Below, in pieces: positions 2,999 through 27,721 of a stretch of 32,000 bases of DNA. The notes beneath the pieces were generated by a model. The model saw only the letters and a list, made by a program, of their open reading frames with translations, made no database searches and was not told where the DNA came from. Source of the stretch: Planctomycetales bacterium (GTDB lineage: Bacteria > 4484-113 > JAFGCY01); assembly GCA_022646745.1 (NCBI GenBank), contig CP060262.1:270001-302000 (forward strand), given 5' to 3'. Every line of letters begins with the position of its first letter. The first letter of the stretch is position 1. Made by a program: the position numbers and the translations under genes.

Positions 2999-3096
2999 AA
3001 GTACTGCTGTCTAACTCCCGCTTCCATTGTATGCCAGCGCATCCGTCCACCAGCGAGCGCCCGCTACAATTTCCGCAGCACGAGCAGGAGGAAGTC

Positions 3097-3639
3097 ATGG
3101 CGCGCATCAAGGGACCGGACATCGACAAGCTGGACACTCGCCTGAAGAAGATATTCGAGGCGCAGGCCGGGCAGTACGGCCAGCCGCTTACAGGCCAGTT
3201 CATCGCCGCCCACAGCCCGGAGATCTTCAACGGGATGCGTGGCATGTTCGGTGCACTGCACAAGAGCGGCCTCTTGGAGCCCGCGCTGCGCAACCTGCTG
3301 AACCGGCATGTGGCGCTGATCAACCACTGCCCATATTGAGCCGACCTGAATGCTGCAGGTGGCAGCAAGAACGGCCTCAGCTACGAACAGCTAACGCAAC
3401 TTGACAACTGGCGTGGCAACGCGATTTACACCTTCCGCCAGCAACTCGCGCTGGAGTATGCCGAAGCCATGACCTATACCGACCAGGATGTCAGCGACGA
3501 ACTTTTCTCACGGATCTGCGGGGAGTTCAGTGTGCCGGAAATCGTGGAACTGACAATGACCATCGCCTGGGAAAACGCCAGCGCGAAATTCAACCATGCT
3601 TTCTTAATCGAATCGCTGGAGACGTGGAAGCCTGAATAG
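3097..3639 (+). CDS. AhpD-like / carboxymuconolactone decarboxylase family protein, probable selenoprotein (Sec encoded by TGA 3337-3339, motif CPYU)
   Basis: AGGAGG at 3086-3091 lies 5 nt before ATG 3097. There are 80 codons up to an in-frame TGA that occupies the second Cys position of the family CxxC motif. The same frame stays open for 99 more codons to TAG 3637-3639, and a hairpin follows the TGA. Confidence 0.7.
3340..3367 (+). promoter_or_regulatory. SECIS-like hairpin immediately 3' of the in-frame TGA
   Basis: A 6-bp stem (3351-3356 / 3362-3367) closes an AGGUG loop (3357-3361). An alternative stem (3340-3348 / 3356-3363, with one bulge) is also possible. The loop lies about 20 nt from the UGA. 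Confidence 0.5.
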
Positions 3640-3681
3640 AGTGTAGGAGCTGGTGAGTAGGGCGTAGCGGAGGTCAGGCTC

Positions 3682-3712
3682 GGAGGCGCGCAACTTGCTT
3701 GCGCGCAATCTT
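3682..3712. repeat. REP hairpin element, copy 1 (GGAGGCGCGCAACTTGCTTGCGCGCAATCTT)
   Basis: 8-bp stem GCGCGCAA/TTGCGCGC (3686-3693 / 3699-3706) with a 5-nt loop. It is an inverted copy of 4375-4405. Confidence 0.85.
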
Positions 3713-4335
3713 CATTCCGCATCATACCAATCTTCAGGCAACTTCAATCTGGCAGCTGTCGCTATTGGGTCAAAAGTGTGACAACTGCTGAACTGCCAAT
3801 CCCGCGGACAGCACACCAATCCGGCCTTCACTGGGTTCCTGTGTATGTAGGTAACCGTTTTAAGCAGATGCTCCGGACTCCGTATCATTCTGTCAAAGTA
3901 TCCACGCTGCCAGATTGCTTCGCTTGTCTGTCGGAGTCTGCGGATATTGTGGGTTGATCCGGCCTTTATCAGCTTGACAATGCTTCCCAGTCGATTGTCC
4001 TTCTTCTGCGTCAGGAGTAAATGGACATGGTTGGGCATGATTACCCAGGCGAGTGTTTCGTGGGAGTATCCGTCGTTAAGCAAAATTGATCGAAGAACAA
4101 TATTGGCAATGGAAGGACTTCCAAGAATGCAGGTCCCTTTTCCCTGGTCCAGGATCCGGTCGTTCAGGATGGATTCCTCTCTGCTTCGCATTCCAATACC
4201 CAGAGAATTCCTTTTCATTTGAAATCTAGGTGCGGCATCAGCAAGAACGAACGTAACGAATTGGATCGCATCCGCTGTATCAAGGTGCGGTAGATTGCCA
4301 TGCTTGTAGAATCCCAGATTCCCTCTCTGGATCAT
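3712..4335 (-). CDS. rayT: REP-associated tyrosine transposase (RAYT; IS200/IS605-like Y1 HUH transposase)
   Basis: N-terminal GNLPHLD...VTFVLAD, HUH motif PNHVHLL and catalytic Tyr region TYIHRNPVKAGL. Flanked by inverted REPs. GC content is clearly lower than in neighbouring genes. Confidence 0.85.
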   Translation of the reverse strand: MIQRGNLGFYKHGNLPHLDTADAIQFVTFVLADAAPRFQMKRNSLGIGMRSREESILNDRILDQGKGTCILGSPSIANIVLRSILLNDGYSHETLAWVIMPNHVHLLLTQKKDNRLGSIVKLIKAGSTHNIRRLRQTSEAIWQRGYFDRMIRSPEHLLKTVTYIHRNPVKAGLVCCPRDWQFSSCHTFDPIATAARLKLPEDWYDAE

Positions 4336-4374: not shown

Positions 4375-4405
4375 AAGATTGCGCGCAAACAAGTTGCGCG
4401 CCTCC
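4375..4405. repeat. REP hairpin element, copy 2 (inverted relative to copy 1)
   Basis: AAGATTGCGCGCAAACAAGTTGCGCGCCTCC. Its reverse complement equals copy 1 except for 1 nt in the loop. Confidence 0.85.
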
Positions 4406-4430
4406 GATACTACAAACCAGATCCCATGTC

Positions 4431-22626: not shown

Positions 22627-22662
22627 GCCGTCCCAACTTCACTTGAAATAAGCAATGTAAAT

Positions 22663-22705
22663 GGTCGGTACTCCTAAGACCATGACCGGATCAGGAGTAC
22701 CGACC
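22663..22705 (+). promoter_or_regulatory. Perfect 13-bp inverted repeat sequestering the RBS of the first FMN reductase gene
   Basis: GGTCGGTACTCCT (22663-22675) and AGGAGTACCGACC (22693-22705) with a 17-nt loop. The right arm contains the SD AGGAG and ends 1 nt before ATG 22706. Confidence 0.6.
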
Positions 22706-23263
22706 ATGCGCATCCTCGCCTTCTCCGCTTCCCTGCGAAAGGATTCCCTCAACGGCAAGCTGATTGAAATCGCTGCCCGCCTTGCCCGTGAACATGGCGC
22801 TGAGGTGGACCTGGCTGACTTCTCCGAACTCGTGATGCCCAACTACAACTTCGATGTGGAGAAGCAGGGCTTCCCGCAGGAGTGCATCGCGCTGGGTAAG
22901 CGTGTGGAAGGCGTGCAGGGCATCATGGTCTCCACCCCGGAGTACAACCATTCCTTCCCCGGCACCCTGAAGAACTCCCTCGACTGGCTGTCCCGCCTGC
23001 GTCCGATGCCGCTGCGCGGCAAGTGCGTGCAGATCCTCAGTGCTGCCCCATCGCTTGTTGGCGGCAACCGGGCCGCCGAAGCGCTGAGCACCCCGCTGGA
23101 AGTGCTCGGGATGCATGTGATGCCAGACCGCTTCTCCCTCAACACCGCCAATGAGGCCTTTGATGAGCAGGGCGAACTGCTTGACCCGAAGCGACTGGAA
23201 CGGCTTGACGGAGCAATCCAGTACTTCCTGCGCGTGGTAAAGAGCATGCAGCTGATGGACTAG
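22706..23263 (+). CDS. NAD(P)H-dependent FMN reductase family flavoprotein, paralog 1
   Basis: MRILAFSASLRKDSLN, VSTPEYNHSFPGTLKNSLDW. Confidence 0.8.
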   Translation: MRILAFSASLRKDSLNGKLIEIAARLAREHGAEVDLADFSELVMPNYNFDVEKQGFPQECIALGKRVEGVQGIMVSTPEYNHSFPGTLKNSLDWLSRLRPMPLRGKCVQILSAAPSLVGGNRAAEALSTPLEVLGMHVMPDRFSLNTANEAFDEQGELLDPKRLERLDGAIQYFLRVVKSMQLMD

Positions 23264-23368
23264 GATAGGCCGCAGGGCTCTGGCCGGGGGCCTGCCAGTG
23301 TTACGGCGCTGTCTCATCAAATCACCCACTAGGCCATCACCAGCGGCCAGCGGACTTGAACCAGGCCT

Positions 23369-23389
23369 CTGGGCTCAGGGCTCGGGCCT
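23369..23389. repeat. Heptamer array ctgggct/cagggct/cgggcct
   Basis: Three 7-nt units in phase within the intergenic spacer. Confidence 0.5.
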
Positions 23390-23516
23390 TCGCTCCTAAC
23401 GGTCTTATCTCATCGATTCACTCTCAAAGCCCCAACCCTGAGGCCAGAGTACTTTTTCATACCAATAGTACAAAATGTCCATATATGGCCGAATATTTAG
23501 ATCTTTTGTCAATAAG

Positions 23517-23545
23517 TTGCAATTTATGCAATATATAACTATGAT
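23517..23545 (+). promoter_or_regulatory. Sigma70-type promoter TTGCAA-17 nt-TATGAT for FMN reductase paralog 2
   Basis: Located in an AT-rich stretch. The -10 element ends 41 nt before ATG 23587. The 10-bp palindrome CCATATATGG (23479-23488) lies upstream. Confidence 0.5.
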
Positions 23546-23548
23546 TTA

Positions 23549-23577
23549 CCCGGTGCACAACAATCCCGTGCACTGGG
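23549..23577 (+). promoter_or_regulatory. 5'-UTR hairpin overlapping the RBS of FMN reductase paralog 2
   Basis: CCCGGTGCAC (23549-23558) pairs with GTGCACTGGG (23568-23577), including one G-U pair, around a 9-nt loop. The right arm overlaps the SD GGGGAG (23575-23580). Confidence 0.45.
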
Positions 23578-23586
23578 GAGAATTAC

Positions 23587-24171
23587 ATGAAGATCCTGGT
23601 GTTCACACCCTGTCCCGAGGAAGGCTCGATCAACAGCCGGCTGGCCCGCCTGTGCACCCGTGTGGCGGAGAGCAAGGGAGTCGAGGTGGACTACGCCCCC
23701 TTTGCAGAGTTCGAGATGCCCTTCTATGACCGGCAGATGGAGGAGAACTACGGGCTGCCCCGCGGGGCACGAGAAATGGTGTCCCGCATCAGCACCGCCG
23801 ACGGGATTGTGATTGTCTCCCCTGAATACAACTGCAGCATGCCCGGCAGTCTGAAGAACGCGATCGACTGGATCAGCAAGTCCAACCCGATGCCGCTGCG
23901 CGGCAAGGTGATCCAGCTGATGAGTGCCGGAGATGACAGCCATGGCGGTCGCCAGGGCCTGTGGTCGCTGCGCATCCCGCTGGAATCACTCAACGCCTTT
24001 GTGCTGCCGCAGATGTACTGCCTGGCGGAAGCCACGCGTGCCATCCGCAAGGACGGAGAACTGAGCGAACGCTCGCAGGCCGAGATGCTCAGCGACATCG
24101 TCGAGGAGTTCCTGCTGACCGTGCGCCGCTTCAAGAAGCATCCGGTCGGCTCCTACATCACCGTTGGCTAG
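23587..24171 (+). CDS. NAD(P)H-dependent FMN reductase family flavoprotein, paralog 2
   Basis: MKILVFTPCPEEGSINS, VSPEYNCSMPGSLKNAIDW. Clearly paralogous to 22706-23263. Confidence 0.8.
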   Translation: MKILVFTPCPEEGSINSRLARLCTRVAESKGVEVDYAPFAEFEMPFYDRQMEENYGLPRGAREMVSRISTADGIVIVSPEYNCSMPGSLKNAIDWISKSNPMPLRGKVIQLMSAGDDSHGGRQGLWSLRIPLESLNAFVLPQMYCLAEATRAIRKDGELSERSQAEMLSDIVEEFLLTVRRFKKHPVGSYITVG

Positions 24172-24173
24172 CG

Positions 24174-25907
24174 CTACTCGCTCTTGAGCGTCGACACGCC
24201 ACCCTTGACGGAGTCAGCGGTCACCGTGAACGGGCCGCTGCCACGCACGATCCAGCGCACGTAGACCGCATCGCCGAAGGACACGCTGCTCAGCTCGACA
24301 TTGCCCGGGTCACGCTGCTGCTCACGCGGGCGGCGGAAGAACATGTCGTTGTCACGCATCGCTGTCAGCACCTTCATCCCGTTGCCACCCTTGAGGCTGA
24401 CGATGTCAGGCCGTACCAGCGAACTGCGCTCGGCCACGCTCAACCTGGTCGGGATCAGGTGGTCGTTGACGATCACCGCGGTGACCTCGGTCATGCCGTG
24501 GTCCAGCTGCTTCACGCTCACGCTGTCAACGCGGATGCGCGGCAGCTGCGAGGCGTGGTAGACAGTGAAGGCCATGTTGCGGTGCAGCTCCTCCTGCAGG
24601 AGGAAGCTCGGTGGCTGGCGGCCGTAGCTCTTCTTGTAGCCGCCGACCTCGACCGTGCCGTAGTCTGGGTGCTCCACTTCATGCCAGGGCACGAAGGCTT
24701 CGCCGAACAGCAGCTGGTCGTTGAAGCGCGCCTGGTCGGTGCGGTCCCCCTGCCAGCTGCCGTCATTGGCGGTGCGGAAGTAGTTGAAGGAGGTCCACAT
24801 CTCATTGGTGTAGGCCAGCGCGCCGATGCTGGCGTACCACCAGTCCAGCTCGCCACCATGCACCGTGTAGAGGTCCTCCCAGGTGATCATGTACTTGTAG
24901 CCCGGCAGCATCTCCTCGCCGCGCTTGCCGATCGCGTCATAGACCTGGCGGTCCGAGCGGCTGTAGGTGTTCTCCTCGGCGCCGGGTCCACTGAGGATCA
25001 TGCCGCCGGCGTTGTGGAAGGACTGCGCGCCACCGATGTTCGGGTGCGCCAGCGCGAAGTCAGCCACGGCCCGGTTCTCCTGCAGCGAGAAGGGGTAGCG
25101 GTAGGCGCCCCACTGGATGTGCCCGGGCTGCCAGTCGTAGCCCCAGTCGCGGTTCGGGTCGTAGCCGCCGGCGCCGTCCTCGTTCACCATCCCGTCGCCG
25201 TCGTTGTCATACCCTTCCTCACCGAGCATCGTCCAGCCGCCGATCTCGTCCTGCTCGGCGCGCACCATCATCCAGGGGTACTCATCGTCCTCCTTCCAGC
25301 GGCCATTCGGGTCCTTCACGCGCATCGAGACGATGTGGCCGTCGCCATCGAGGTCGTCGTCGTCATCCTCGTCAAACAGGCCGTCACGGTCGTTGTCAAT
25401 CGGTCGCTGGCCTGTGCGCGGGCCATTAGTGTTGGCGGCCTCGTGCAGGTGCACGTCACGGCTGTCCGGGCTCATCATCGGCAGGATGTAGAACACCTGG
25501 CTGTCGACGATCTCCCTGATCTGCTTCATCTGCGAGTAGCCCTCGATCAGGAACCACGCCGTGTACAGCGCGCCGTCACTGCCCTGGATCTCGTTGGCAT
25601 GGATGCCGCCGTCCAGCCAGAAGGCCGGCTTGCGGGCCTCGTCCCCCGTGCTGAAGTTGGTTATCGTCATCACCCACATCTCGCGGCCCTGCCAGCTCGT
25701 GCCGATGCTGTCCAGCCGGCAGATGTCCGGGTGCGCCGCCGCCAGGTCCTGCAGCAGCTTGGTCTGTGCGTCGTAGTCACGGTAGAAGTCCCAGGCCGCG
25801 GGGACCTTCGGGTCCACCGGGCGGCCGATCAACGGGTAGCCGTCATCAGCGAATGCGCTGCCCAGCAGGCAGGCTCCGGCAAGGATCATTGCAATCAGTT
25901 TCTTCAT
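24174..25907 (-). CDS. Secreted M14-family zinc carboxypeptidase (catalytically intact) with Asp-rich Ca-binding-like inserts
   Basis: Signal peptide MKKLIAMILAGACLLGSAFA. Zn and catalytic residues are present: HANE, DPNRDW, SFHNAG, YTNEMW. DxDxDG-like runs are present. The AGGAGG SD overlaps the upstream gene's TAG stop. Confidence 0.8.
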   Translation of the reverse strand: MKKLIAMILAGACLLGSAFADDGYPLIGRPVDPKVPAAWDFYRDYDAQTKLLQDLAAAHPDICRLDSIGTSWQGREMWVMTITNFSTGDEARKPAFWLDGGIHANEIQGSDGALYTAWFLIEGYSQMKQIREIVDSQVFYILPMMSPDSRDVHLHEAANTNGPRTGQRPIDNDRDGLFDEDDDDDLDGDGHIVSMRVKDPNGRWKEDDEYPWMMVRAEQDEIGGWTMLGEEGYDNDGDGMVNEDGAGGYDPNRDWGYDWQPGHIQWGAYRYPFSLQENRAVADFALAHPNIGGAQSFHNAGGMILSGPGAEENTYSRSDRQVYDAIGKRGEEMLPGYKYMITWEDLYTVHGGELDWWYASIGALAYTNEMWTSFNYFRTANDGSWQGDRTDQARFNDQLLFGEAFVPWHEVEHPDYGTVEVGGYKKSYGRQPPSFLLQEELHRNMAFTVYHASQLPRIRVDSVSVKQLDHGMTEVTAVIVNDHLIPTRLSVAERSSLVRPDIVSLKGGNGMKVLTAMRDNDMFFRRPREQQRDPGNVELSSVSFGDAVYVRWIVRGSGPFTVTADSVKGGVSTLKSE

Positions 25908-25916
25908 CACTTCCTC

Positions 25917-27632
25917 CTAGCTACCCAGCTCTGCGCTGCCGCGCGCCATGCCGACACTCGGGCTGGCAACCACCAGCCTGATCGCGCCACCCTGCGGTGC
26001 CACCACCAGCCAGCTGAACTCCGTCTGTGCCCCGAGGCCCTCGATCCTATCGAGCCGGCCGCGCAGCGCGCCGTTGAGCAGGCTGGCTCCGGCCGGCAGC
26101 TCGAGCGCGATGTTGAGCGGGTAGTCCTGGCGGATGCTCGCCGCCTTGCGGGTGCTGGTCGGCAGGTAGCCGCTGTTCGTCACATGGGCCGTCACGCGGT
26201 ACAGGCCCTCGCCGAGGTCGTCAACCTCCACTTCACTGATCGCCACTGCCGGCACGAGCCCGGTCAGCATGCGCAGGAAGTCGAAGTGCTTCGTTGCCAG
26301 TGCGGCGATCTCGGAAGCCGGCGGGTTCGTGCGCAGGTAGGGGCGGAAGCCGCCGACCTGCACGGTGCGGCCCGGGAAGTCCGCGTTGGCAACATCGGTC
26401 CAGTCCACAAAGCCGTCAATGCCCTGGGACTCGAACCACTTCAGGGCATTGATCTCATCCGCCCCGCGCTTCTCGTCACTCTTCTTCGGTTTCTCGGCTT
26501 CCTTGCCCTCCTCGGCCGCCTCGCCTTCGGCTGGTGCTTCCGGCTTGAACTCCGGCACCCACCAGGCGCGGGTGCTGATGCTCCAGGCACCGTAGTGGAA
26601 GTAGGCCCAGTCGGCGAAGCTGCCGCGCGGGTTGGCACTGCCCGGGAAGTTTTCCTTGCCAAGCAGCTCAACGCCCTGCTTGGCAAGCCAGTCAAGGTTG
26701 CCGATGTCACTGCCTTCGGCGGACTCATGGCGCAGCTTGCCGTGGTCATCCTTCCAGGGCTGGCGGATGTTGTCCTCCGGCCCGAAGCTCAGCACGATGC
26801 TGATCTGCTGGTTGTTGAACAGCCAGTCGATCACGCTGCGGGTCTCGGGTTCGCTCACCGGCCAGGGCCCGCTGCCCTCCGCACGGTCGTCATAGTTGAA
26901 CGTTGTGTTGCGGTTGAAGTCCACGCCACCGCTGCGGTCCTCGTTCCACTGCTCGTCGTCATCATTGTCGCGACCCTCGCTGTATAGGCGCCAGCTGCCC
27001 TGCTCGTTGTCATCGCGCTTGGCACGGATCAGCACCCGCGGGTCATCCGGATGCTCCATCCACTCGCCGGCCGGATCGCTCACGCGCATCATGGTCAGCA
27101 TGCCGTCACCATTCAGGTCCTCACCGGGGTCCTCGTCCACCCGCCCGTCGCGGTCGTCATCTGATGGAGTGCCGTTGGTCTCACGCTCGTAGTCTCCATT
27201 CGTGAAGAAGTACTCCGTCGCATCCGGCGTCGGGCTGGGCAGGAAGTAGAAGTCATGCTGCTCCAGGAAGGCCAGCAGCTCCGTGTCGTCATCGAGGCTG
27301 TCCAGCACGCGCTGCGCCAGCTCGAGGCAGATCTCACGCCCCGCCAGGTCACTTGCCTGGGTATTGCCGATCACCGCGATCGCCGGCCGCGCCATCGTGT
27401 CACCGACGGCGTTCAAGAGCTCAGTCGAGCCGCCGATGCGCAGCACGAGGATGTCGCGGCCCTCAGCTGTCTTGCCGATGCTCATCAGCTCGCATTCGGG
27501 CGCTTGCGCCATCCGTTCCATTTCCGCCCTGAGCGCAGCATGGTTACGGTAGCCCTCCAGCGGAGCGGCGGCGGCAGGTGGTGGCAGCAGGTACAGGATG
27601 CTCAGCAGGCATGTACAGATGAGAGTTCTCAT
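25917..27632 (-). CDS. M14-like paralog lacking Zn ligands and catalytic Glu (probable pseudopeptidase), secreted
   Basis: Same architecture and Asp-rich inserts as 24174-25907, but HxxE becomes NTQA, SFH becomes SFG and TNEMW becomes STRAWW. NR is retained (DFNRNT). Signal peptide MRTLICTCLLSILYLLPPPAAAAP. Confidence 0.7.
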   Translation of the reverse strand: MRTLICTCLLSILYLLPPPAAAAPLEGYRNHAALRAEMERMAQAPECELMSIGKTAEGRDILVLRIGGSTELLNAVGDTMARPAIAVIGNTQASDLAGREICLELAQRVLDSLDDDTELLAFLEQHDFYFLPSPTPDATEYFFTNGDYERETNGTPSDDDRDGRVDEDPGEDLNGDGMLTMMRVSDPAGEWMEHPDDPRVLIRAKRDDNEQGSWRLYSEGRDNDDDEQWNEDRSGGVDFNRNTTFNYDDRAEGSGPWPVSEPETRSVIDWLFNNQQISIVLSFGPEDNIRQPWKDDHGKLRHESAEGSDIGNLDWLAKQGVELLGKENFPGSANPRGSFADWAYFHYGAWSISTRAWWVPEFKPEAPAEGEAAEEGKEAEKPKKSDEKRGADEINALKWFESQGIDGFVDWTDVANADFPGRTVQVGGFRPYLRTNPPASEIAALATKHFDFLRMLTGLVPAVAISEVEVDDLGEGLYRVTAHVTNSGYLPTSTRKAASIRQDYPLNIALELPAGASLLNGALRGRLDRIEGLGAQTEFSWLVVAPQGGAIRLVVASPSVGMARGSAELGS

Positions 27633-27721
27633 GAAGTGGATCTCCCGCAGGATATGGCCCAATATAAGTGGCACCAATTGTAACGCGGAGTACAAATTCC
27701 GTACAGCATGACGCGCGGACC

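Follow-up and report, generated by a model that had tools for sequence, protein, structure and literature searches.

An in-frame UGA in an AhpD-like gene of a UBP7-labelled lineage is very probably a selenocysteine codon followed by a conserved SECIS hairpin

A gene at positions 3097-3639 (plus strand) of the 32-kb stretch of DNA analyzed here (called the window below) is interrupted by one in-frame TGA. This codon is very probably read as selenocysteine (Sec), inserted as residue 81 in a SelB/SECIS-dependent way, so that an oxidoreductase of the AhpD fold acquires the centre C78-x-x-U81. The region would then be one gene for a 180-residue thiol/selenol oxidoreductase of the CMD superfamily, related to YciW, with the active site Cys78-Pro-Tyr-Sec81. 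The gene is a single open reading frame in which the TGA occupies a Sec/Cys column of the homologs. A conserved, covarying hairpin follows the TGA, and the half of the gene downstream of it is under selection. The features of the locus are as follows.

3086-3091, plus strand: Shine-Dalgarno sequence AGGAGG, read from the sequence, 5 nt ahead of the start codon
3097-3639, plus strand: coding sequence of the putative 180-residue AhpD-like / YciW-related selenoprotein, based on translation, PF02627, NF053654 and purifying selection on both halves
3328-3339, plus strand: redox motif C-P-Y-U (TGC CCA TAT TGA), aligned to the CxxC of Cys homologs and to CAFC / CAYC of 2gmy / 2ijc
3337-3339, plus strand: in-frame UGA, the putative Sec codon (residue 81), based on a column that reads TGA in 20 or more distinct orthologs and TGC/TGT in ~40 others
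3337-3379, plus strand: extended SECIS stem-loop, predicted, with a lower helix of UGAGCCG with CGG.CUCA around the upper hairpin (MFE fold)
3351-3367, plus strand: putative SECIS upper hairpin, 6-bp stem UGCUGC/GCAGCA and loop AGGUG, based on pairing over 16 orthologs and comparison with fdhF
3686-3706, plus strand: GC-rich hairpin, the only terminator-like site after the TAG, also part of the left REP-like repeat of a RAYT gene

The reading frame 3097-3639 consists of 80 sense codons ending in ...ALINHCPY, the TGA at 3337-3339, 99 more sense codons and a TAG at 3637-3639. Its sole interruption is the TGA, which stands at the second Cys position of a CxxC motif. The coordinates, the division into 80 and 99 codons and the total of 180 codons had been proposed earlier by a reader who saw only the letters; they were re-derived here from the sequence and its translation. 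The same sequence-only reading placed the TGA at the second Cys of CxxC, and the column indeed aligns to Cys in homologs. The MARI... N-termini of orthologs correspond to a start at ATG 3097. Minus-strand ORFs that overlap 3097-3639 were deemed spurious, as homology and selection sit in the plus-strand frame. In the assemblies examined, public gene calls divide the gene into an 80-aa piece and a 35- or 56-aa piece, much as the earlier reader had expected in predicting that gene callers would report an 80-aa fragment.

The codon TGA serves as the stop of 10 of the 26 other window ORFs taken as genes (12 end in TAG and 4 in TAA), including the genes for PurD, an ABC-F protein and an MBL-fold hydrolase. 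None of these 26 ORFs has an internal stop. A genome-wide reassignment of TGA is ruled out by the ten TGA-terminated ORFs. The sequence-only reading, which argued for local recoding because TGA is a genuine stop for "at least eight" window genes, was therefore correct and somewhat conservative on this point.

Similarity to known protein families extends across the TGA. The joined product matches PF02627 (CMD) over profile positions 1-83/84 with E = 2.5e-7 and 31 bits against a cutoff of 23. Scored separately, the 80-aa piece reaches 13.8 bits and the 99-aa piece obtains no score, so that the threshold is passed by the joined product only. The model NF053654, named "YciW-related (seleno)protein", aligns with the window protein end to end (1-178/179, E = 3.9e-55). 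The score of 186.4 bits is below the equivalog cutoff of 310 bits, and we therefore regard the window protein as a member of a sister group and not as the NF053654 equivalog itself. This alignment is the closest proxy for membership in COG2128. The classical AhpD core model TIGR00778 gives the window protein 19.0 bits and its cutoff of 27.8 is missed; the protein is also below the cutoff of TIGR01926.

Residues 37-166 of the window protein match structures in PDB with E-values from 1.6e-12 for Atu0492 (2gmy) to 2.6e-11, PA0269 (2o4d/2ijc) being matched with E = 2e-11. The CxxC motifs are aligned in these matches, and both CAFC of 2gmy and CAYC of 2ijc line up with C78-P-Y-[TGA]. The CxxU motif of the AhpD-like 1 family is thus present as C78-P-Y-U81, if the TGA is read as Sec. 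The Cys-type AhpD-fold structures (2gmy; 2o4d and 2ijc; 7xw1; the M. tuberculosis-type AhpD) differ from the window protein in having Cys instead of Sec and in reading CxxC-V-(D/N)-M-H. The window protein carries Asn85 at the His position of the classical CxxCxxxH (His in 2gmy and 2ijc), and it has an extra N-terminal segment of 36 residues. Since the classical His is replaced by Asn85, AhpD-like chemistry is ascribed to the window protein by analogy.

A protein search with the window product gave 20 relatives. The TGA column holds Cys in every full-length relative with a CxxC motif; P0020, also full-length, is without the motif. Five fragments of ~108 aa among the relatives begin exactly one residue past the TGA column, and each time their contigs contain an 80-84-aa gene, a TGA and then a ~105-aa gene in the same frame. 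In all, at least seven metagenome loci other than that of the window's lineage have this split architecture. The motifs in the split loci are CPF-TGA-VD(I/L)NAAGGS or CPH-TGA-IDIGVAVGG.

A scan of species-representative genomes yielded 68 loci; the column reads TGA in no fewer than 20 distinct orthologs and TGC/TGT in ~40. An alignment to CMD/AhpD homologs had been suggested in the sequence-only reading as a check of this column, and these are the counts that it returned. The TGA carriers are MAGs labelled UBP7, Thermomicrobiales, Chloroflexia, Pyrinomonadaceae, Blastocatellia, Terriglobales, Polyangia, Deltaproteobacteria, Burkholderiales, Planctomycetaceae, Acidimicrobiaceae and Microthrix, i.e., the TGA forms span the UBP7 lineage, Chloroflexota, Acidobacteriota, Myxococcota, Burkholderiales, Planctomycetota and Actinomycetota. 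Gordonia, Actinomadura, Solirubrobacterales, Rubrivivax and Rhodocyclaceae are examples of TGC/TGT carriers. Judged from the codons, this distribution is the classical pattern of Sec and Cys forms.

In a rough neighbor-joining tree without bootstrap, the Sec forms fall into at least three clades, and the window protein lies within an all-Sec clade that also includes the Pyrinomonadaceae/Blastocatellia group. The nearest relative outside UBP7 is from a Thermomicrobiales MAG (47% identity). Because taxa are mixed in the tree, it suggests that the Sec-form gene has spread horizontally. One Pyrinomonadaceae member of the clade (L015) passes NF053654 at 333.8 bits, and the other Sec clades score 71-231 bits. 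NF053654, which also bears the name "GroundWater_YciW", shares with the window protein the end-to-end alignment and the all-Sec clade of its Pyrinomonadaceae/Blastocatellia members. It differs in the motif, which is CEFU-QDINAAV(C/S)S, compared to CPYU-ADLNAAGGS in the window. Proteins with the NAAGGS motif come from UBP7, Thermomicrobiales, Chloroflexia and Burkholderiales and are outside the curated NF053654 model.

Two side observations concern the homologs. Many of them, Cys and Sec forms alike, are extended at the C-terminus by a segment that contains a conserved Cys (...GF(S/C)...C-x-x-P) and is absent from the window protein and from the Chloroflexia-type NAAGGS forms. Next to the Polyangia-type Sec ortholog, a tRNA-Leu(CAA) gene is located on the opposite strand ~20 nt past the selenoprotein stop (L024, 3607-3691; L006, 5334-5418).

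We compared pN/pS between the window and three related species-level lineages, represented by L011/L007/L009, by L012 and by L013. For the 99 codons after the TGA the ratio is 0.06, 0.05 and 0.14, respectively, with pS of 0.42-0.59; L012 differs from the window in this part by 37.7 synonymous and 6.3 non-synonymous changes. The first 80 codons have pN/pS of 0-0.22, and the downstream half is equally constrained. The TGA is kept in relatives from the UBP7 lineage that have diverged to pS of 0.16-0.59. The position of the terminal stop is kept in the relatives as well, except in L013, where it is two codons earlier. The substitution pattern indicates that the half after the TGA is translated and is under strong purifying selection.

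The sequence-only reading also described a 6-bp stem with an AGGUG loop just after the TGA, and this hairpin is confirmed by folding: the ensemble probability of each of its six pairs is 0.97-0.995. Its strands are at 3351-3356 and 3362-3367, and the loop is at 3357-3361. The spacer between the TGA and the stem is 11 nt, the stem beginning at the 12th nucleotide. The loop contains G23 and U24 (3359-3360), which we take to be the bases contacted by SelB. A 60-nt segment folds with -19.6 kcal/mol (z = -2.2 against dinucleotide shuffles), and the upper hairpin taken by itself amounts to about -9 kcal/mol. The MFE fold also includes a lower helix that takes in the UGA, giving a 45-nt element of -17.7 kcal/mol. 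Lower helices can be drawn in many orthologs, their register is not fixed, and we treat the lower helix of the SECIS as predicted only.

The hairpin is conserved among the TGA forms. A perfectly paired hairpin of 6-8 bp is present in each of the 20 distinct TGA forms, and its 5' base is 14-16 nt from the U of UGA. Their loops are 3-5 nt long and contain GG or GU (AGGUG, GGN, CGUGU, GUG, GGUCA, AGUG, GGC). In the 22 Cys forms, hairpins are scattered, with varying positions and none of them fixed. When the register is fixed, 84% of the cells are paired in Sec forms vs 42% in Cys forms. When 16 orthologs are aligned without gaps, 95.8% of the cells of the six pairs are paired, and all four unpaired cells belong to a single sequence whose hairpin is shifted by half a position. 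Compensatory changes on both sides (for example, U-A to C-G or G-C to U-A) are seen in four of the six pairs. For each of five measures, all 500 shuffles stayed short of the observed value, and pairing falls to 20-40% when the 3' partner is displaced by one or two columns.

The position-specific hairpin is the only fold feature that separates Sec from Cys forms. Total folding energy was tried as a discriminator and rejected: the means are -16.0 kcal/mol for Sec and -19.0 kcal/mol for Cys forms, which is uninformative in such a GC-rich family. The competing stem that the sequence-only reading placed at 3340-3348/3356-3363 can be drawn (-11.1 kcal/mol alone), but its ensemble probability is about zero and it is not conserved. 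With 52% of cells paired, the same as in shuffles, we rejected it as a functional alternative.

The segment 3351-3367 also encodes the N-A-A-G-G-S motif. In the NAAGGS group the first Ala is encoded by GCU in all ten sequences and the Ser by AGC, also in ten of ten; the codon of the second Gly always ends in a pyrimidine, which pairs with G19. The wobble positions in the loop are variable, with A or C at one of them and all four bases at the other. AAGGS does not occur in Cys forms. As the synonymous sites of the stem are frozen and the loop wobbles vary, it is largely the hairpin that imposes the AAGGS peptide.

The E. coli fdhF SECIS (MG1655, codon 140) has the same 11-nt spacer and the same bases at positions 18-24 (UGCAGGU), with G23/U24 in the apical loop. 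The likeness of the GGU-containing loop to that of fdhF, pointed out in the sequence-only reading, thus extends to a heptamer that matches position for position. The two elements differ in that fdhF has a bulged U, while the window has a perfect 6-bp stem with a 5-nt loop. The protein encoded by fdhF is unrelated to the window protein.

An Rfam scan of the window for SECIS and other RNA families found nothing at threshold, and the hits of a permissive scan were at chance level (E = 1.5 and 7.9). One of these chance-level hits joins window positions 3334-3375 to RF02917, "Burkholderiales-2 RNA" (12.1 bits, E = 7.9). The RF02917 consensus, uAUUGaGCCGGaC.GAAcgCCcCacaGGuGgGGcgAGCAACAUCGGC, resembles coding sequence for Tyr-UGA-Ala ahead of a hairpin whose loop is GGUG (UAU-UGA-GCC...CAGGUG). 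Going by this resemblance, the "cis-regulatory" motif might itself be the SECIS of a related selenoprotein gene. RF02917 gave no match at threshold to the Sec loci of Burkholderiales (L021 and L022), and our literature search on RF02917 found no paper.

Several other explanations of the TGA have to be weighed against Sec insertion. The gene might be a dead Cys-type AhpD-like gene, in which a nonsense mutation of TGC/TGT to TGA left nothing but an 80-aa fragment. Such a mutation needs one base change, and the 80-aa fragment is present in gene calls. A dead gene does not account for a TGA that 20 or more distinct orthologs of many phyla share, for 99 downstream codons that stay open with pN/pS of 0.05-0.14 over pS of up to 0.59, or for a position-fixed, covarying hairpin that accompanies TGA forms only. 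We consider this explanation highly improbable; conservation appears to have effectively refuted it. The TGA might also be a sequencing or assembly error for TGC/TGT, in favor of which one can cite only that some errors are to be expected in MAG assemblies. Independent samples (ENA, NCBI and Logan) contain the 80-aa product up to the TGA in identical form, in at least 22 contigs and 33 index blocks. The DNA of the whole gene is identical in the window, in L008 (GCA_020440665.1) and in L010, and the TGA is also present in L011-L013, relatives with 90-97% identity. The chance of such an error is negligible.

The UGA could be read through without selenium, either by a SelB/SECIS-dependent tRNA that inserts Cys, as described for a few bacteria, or by hairpin-stimulated near-cognate suppression with Trp or Cys. 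SelB-dependent Cys insertion would likewise keep both the hairpin and the UGA, and neither the 32-kb window nor ~190 kb of related loci encodes Sec machinery. Against this, a lineage that needs Cys would simply fix TGC, as ~40 homologs have done. The standard signature of true selenoproteins in the AhpD-like family, as seen here, combines a Sec/Cys pattern with a CxxU motif and an fdhF-like loop (PMC1088965, PMC2398784, PMC9312934). We regard selenium-free readthrough as improbable, if less so than the other alternatives. It is highly unlikely, in turn, that the locus makes two polypeptides that assemble into a split AhpD fold, the N-terminal one having 80 aa and the C-terminal one a start of its own. 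A GTG does follow the TGA in several orthologs, and gene callers took it as a start. In the window, though, the TGA is followed by GCC, and an ATG, GTG or TTG in frame does not come until 43 codons further on, where it has no ribosome-binding site (Shine-Dalgarno sequence). L006/L024 have ATC after the TGA, and other orthologs have CAG, ATT or CTG. Such a split would also cut through the four-residue active-site motif.

Sec insertion by SelB, the preferred reading, requires a set of genes that we looked for around the locus. No tRNA-Sec was found in the 32-kb window by ARAGORN or Rfam, and the window has no tRNA at all. SelA, SelB and SelD were not found in the window either (Pfam on 29 ORFs, NCBIfam on eight). 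ARAGORN detected tRNA-Leu only and no tRNA-Sec in 26 related loci. None of selA, selB, selD and the tRNA-Sec gene lies within the 32-kb window or ~190 kb of related loci. The other window genes are housekeeping ones: Mrp/ParA-like ATPase, thioredoxin, AspRS, FliR, ABC-F protein, DnaB, PurD, FMN reductases and M14/M42 peptidases. We infer that the organism has Sec machinery because the TGA and the SECIS are kept under purifying selection across diverged relatives. A search of the literature on UBP7 and selenocysteine found nothing relevant.

The surroundings of the gene have several features of their own. The convergent downstream gene (3712-4335, minus strand) encodes a REP-associated tyrosine transposase, or RAYT (NF047646, 104.9 bits, cutoff 80). 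Inverted repeats of 33 nt, 97% complementary to each other, lie on either side of it (3680-3712 and 4375-4407). Each repeat holds a GC-rich hairpin, GCGCGCAA-CTTG(C/T)-TTGCGCGC, of which there are just two copies in the window. The position of the RAYT gene is kept in the related contigs L007, L008 and L010. On the other side, the minus-strand region 747-2998 contains genes for a thioredoxin (130 aa, 747-1139), ~2 kb from the selenoprotein gene, and for a multi-pass membrane-looking protein of 556 aa that has no Pfam or NCBIfam match. Both are divergent from the selenoprotein gene and are kept in contigs L007-L010 of the UBP7 lineage, with two extra genes inserted in this arrangement in L007 and L009. 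A functional link between the thioredoxin and the selenoprotein is a matter of speculation. Farther away, the window contains two tandem paralogous genes for M14 zinc-carboxypeptidases of 592 aa and 578 aa (24174-27695, minus strand), which are in the same frame and are parted by only a TAG stop and two codons. Two tandem genes for NADPH-dependent FMN reductases (PF03358) are at 22661-24171 (plus strand).

The mechanism that we propose is as follows. The UGA at 3337-3339 would be decoded as Sec, with the hairpin 3351-3367, optionally together with the lower helix, acting as a bacterial SECIS. This element would recruit the complex of SelB, GTP and Sec-tRNA(Sec) to the ribosome while the UGA is in the A site, and the complex would outcompete release factor 2. 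The protein would then reduce peroxides or disulfides, its selenol/thiol pair being converted to a selenenylsulfide and back in each cycle. Both the SelB-dependent insertion and the redox chemistry are deduced from the sequence. In AhpD of M. tuberculosis, the second Cys of CxxC is the attacking nucleophile; a Sec at the second position of the motif fits this role.

Selenoproteins of this kind have been known for a long time. AhpD-like selenoproteins with CxxU were described in 2005 from 27 Sargasso Sea sequences (PMC1088965). GOS data then gave 299 sequences of the AhpD-like 1 family (COG2128) and 70 of AhpD-like 2 (PF02627), both with CxxU (PMC2398784). A later review counts AhpD-like proteins among prominent marine selenoproteins (PMC9312934), and the AhpD-like family (COG2128/YciW, CxxU) is listed in later reviews and in BSepDB (PMC2398784, PMC9312934, PMC13326102). 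The opinion of the sequence-only reading that the family is not new is borne out by these sources and by NCBIfam NF053654. With this family the window gene shares the AhpD/CMD fold, the putative Sec as the second of the CxxC pair, widespread Cys homologs, and a bacterial SECIS right after the UGA with a small G-containing apical loop. It differs in that its copy comes from an uncultured UBP7-labelled lineage and not from a marine sample.

NCBI curates a (seleno)protein model for the sister clade, and the window gene is an unannotated member of a known family. Since AhpD-like proteins with CxxU rank with the most abundant selenoprotein families known from bacteria, what is known of selenoproteins is unchanged by this gene. 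Two points are mildly new: the place of the protein outside the curated equivalog, and its host lineage, which consists of UBP7-labelled MAGs and includes one relative with 90% identity that bears the label Planctomycetales. A more far-reaching view can be offered only tentatively, and we think it rather less probable than its opposite: the gene may be the first sign of Sec decoding in UBP7, and the NAAGGS group may form a distinct, all-Sec, horizontally spreading sub-family of YciW-related proteins with a peptide dictated by the SECIS.

The practical value of the result lies in annotation, with one 180-residue selenoprotein in place of two stubs, one of 80 aa and the other of 35 or 56 aa. With its AAGGS motif and its frozen synonymous sites, this gene would also be a clean case of a bacterial SECIS constraining the peptide that it encodes. 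For the uncultured candidate lineage UBP7, the gene would imply the use of selenium.
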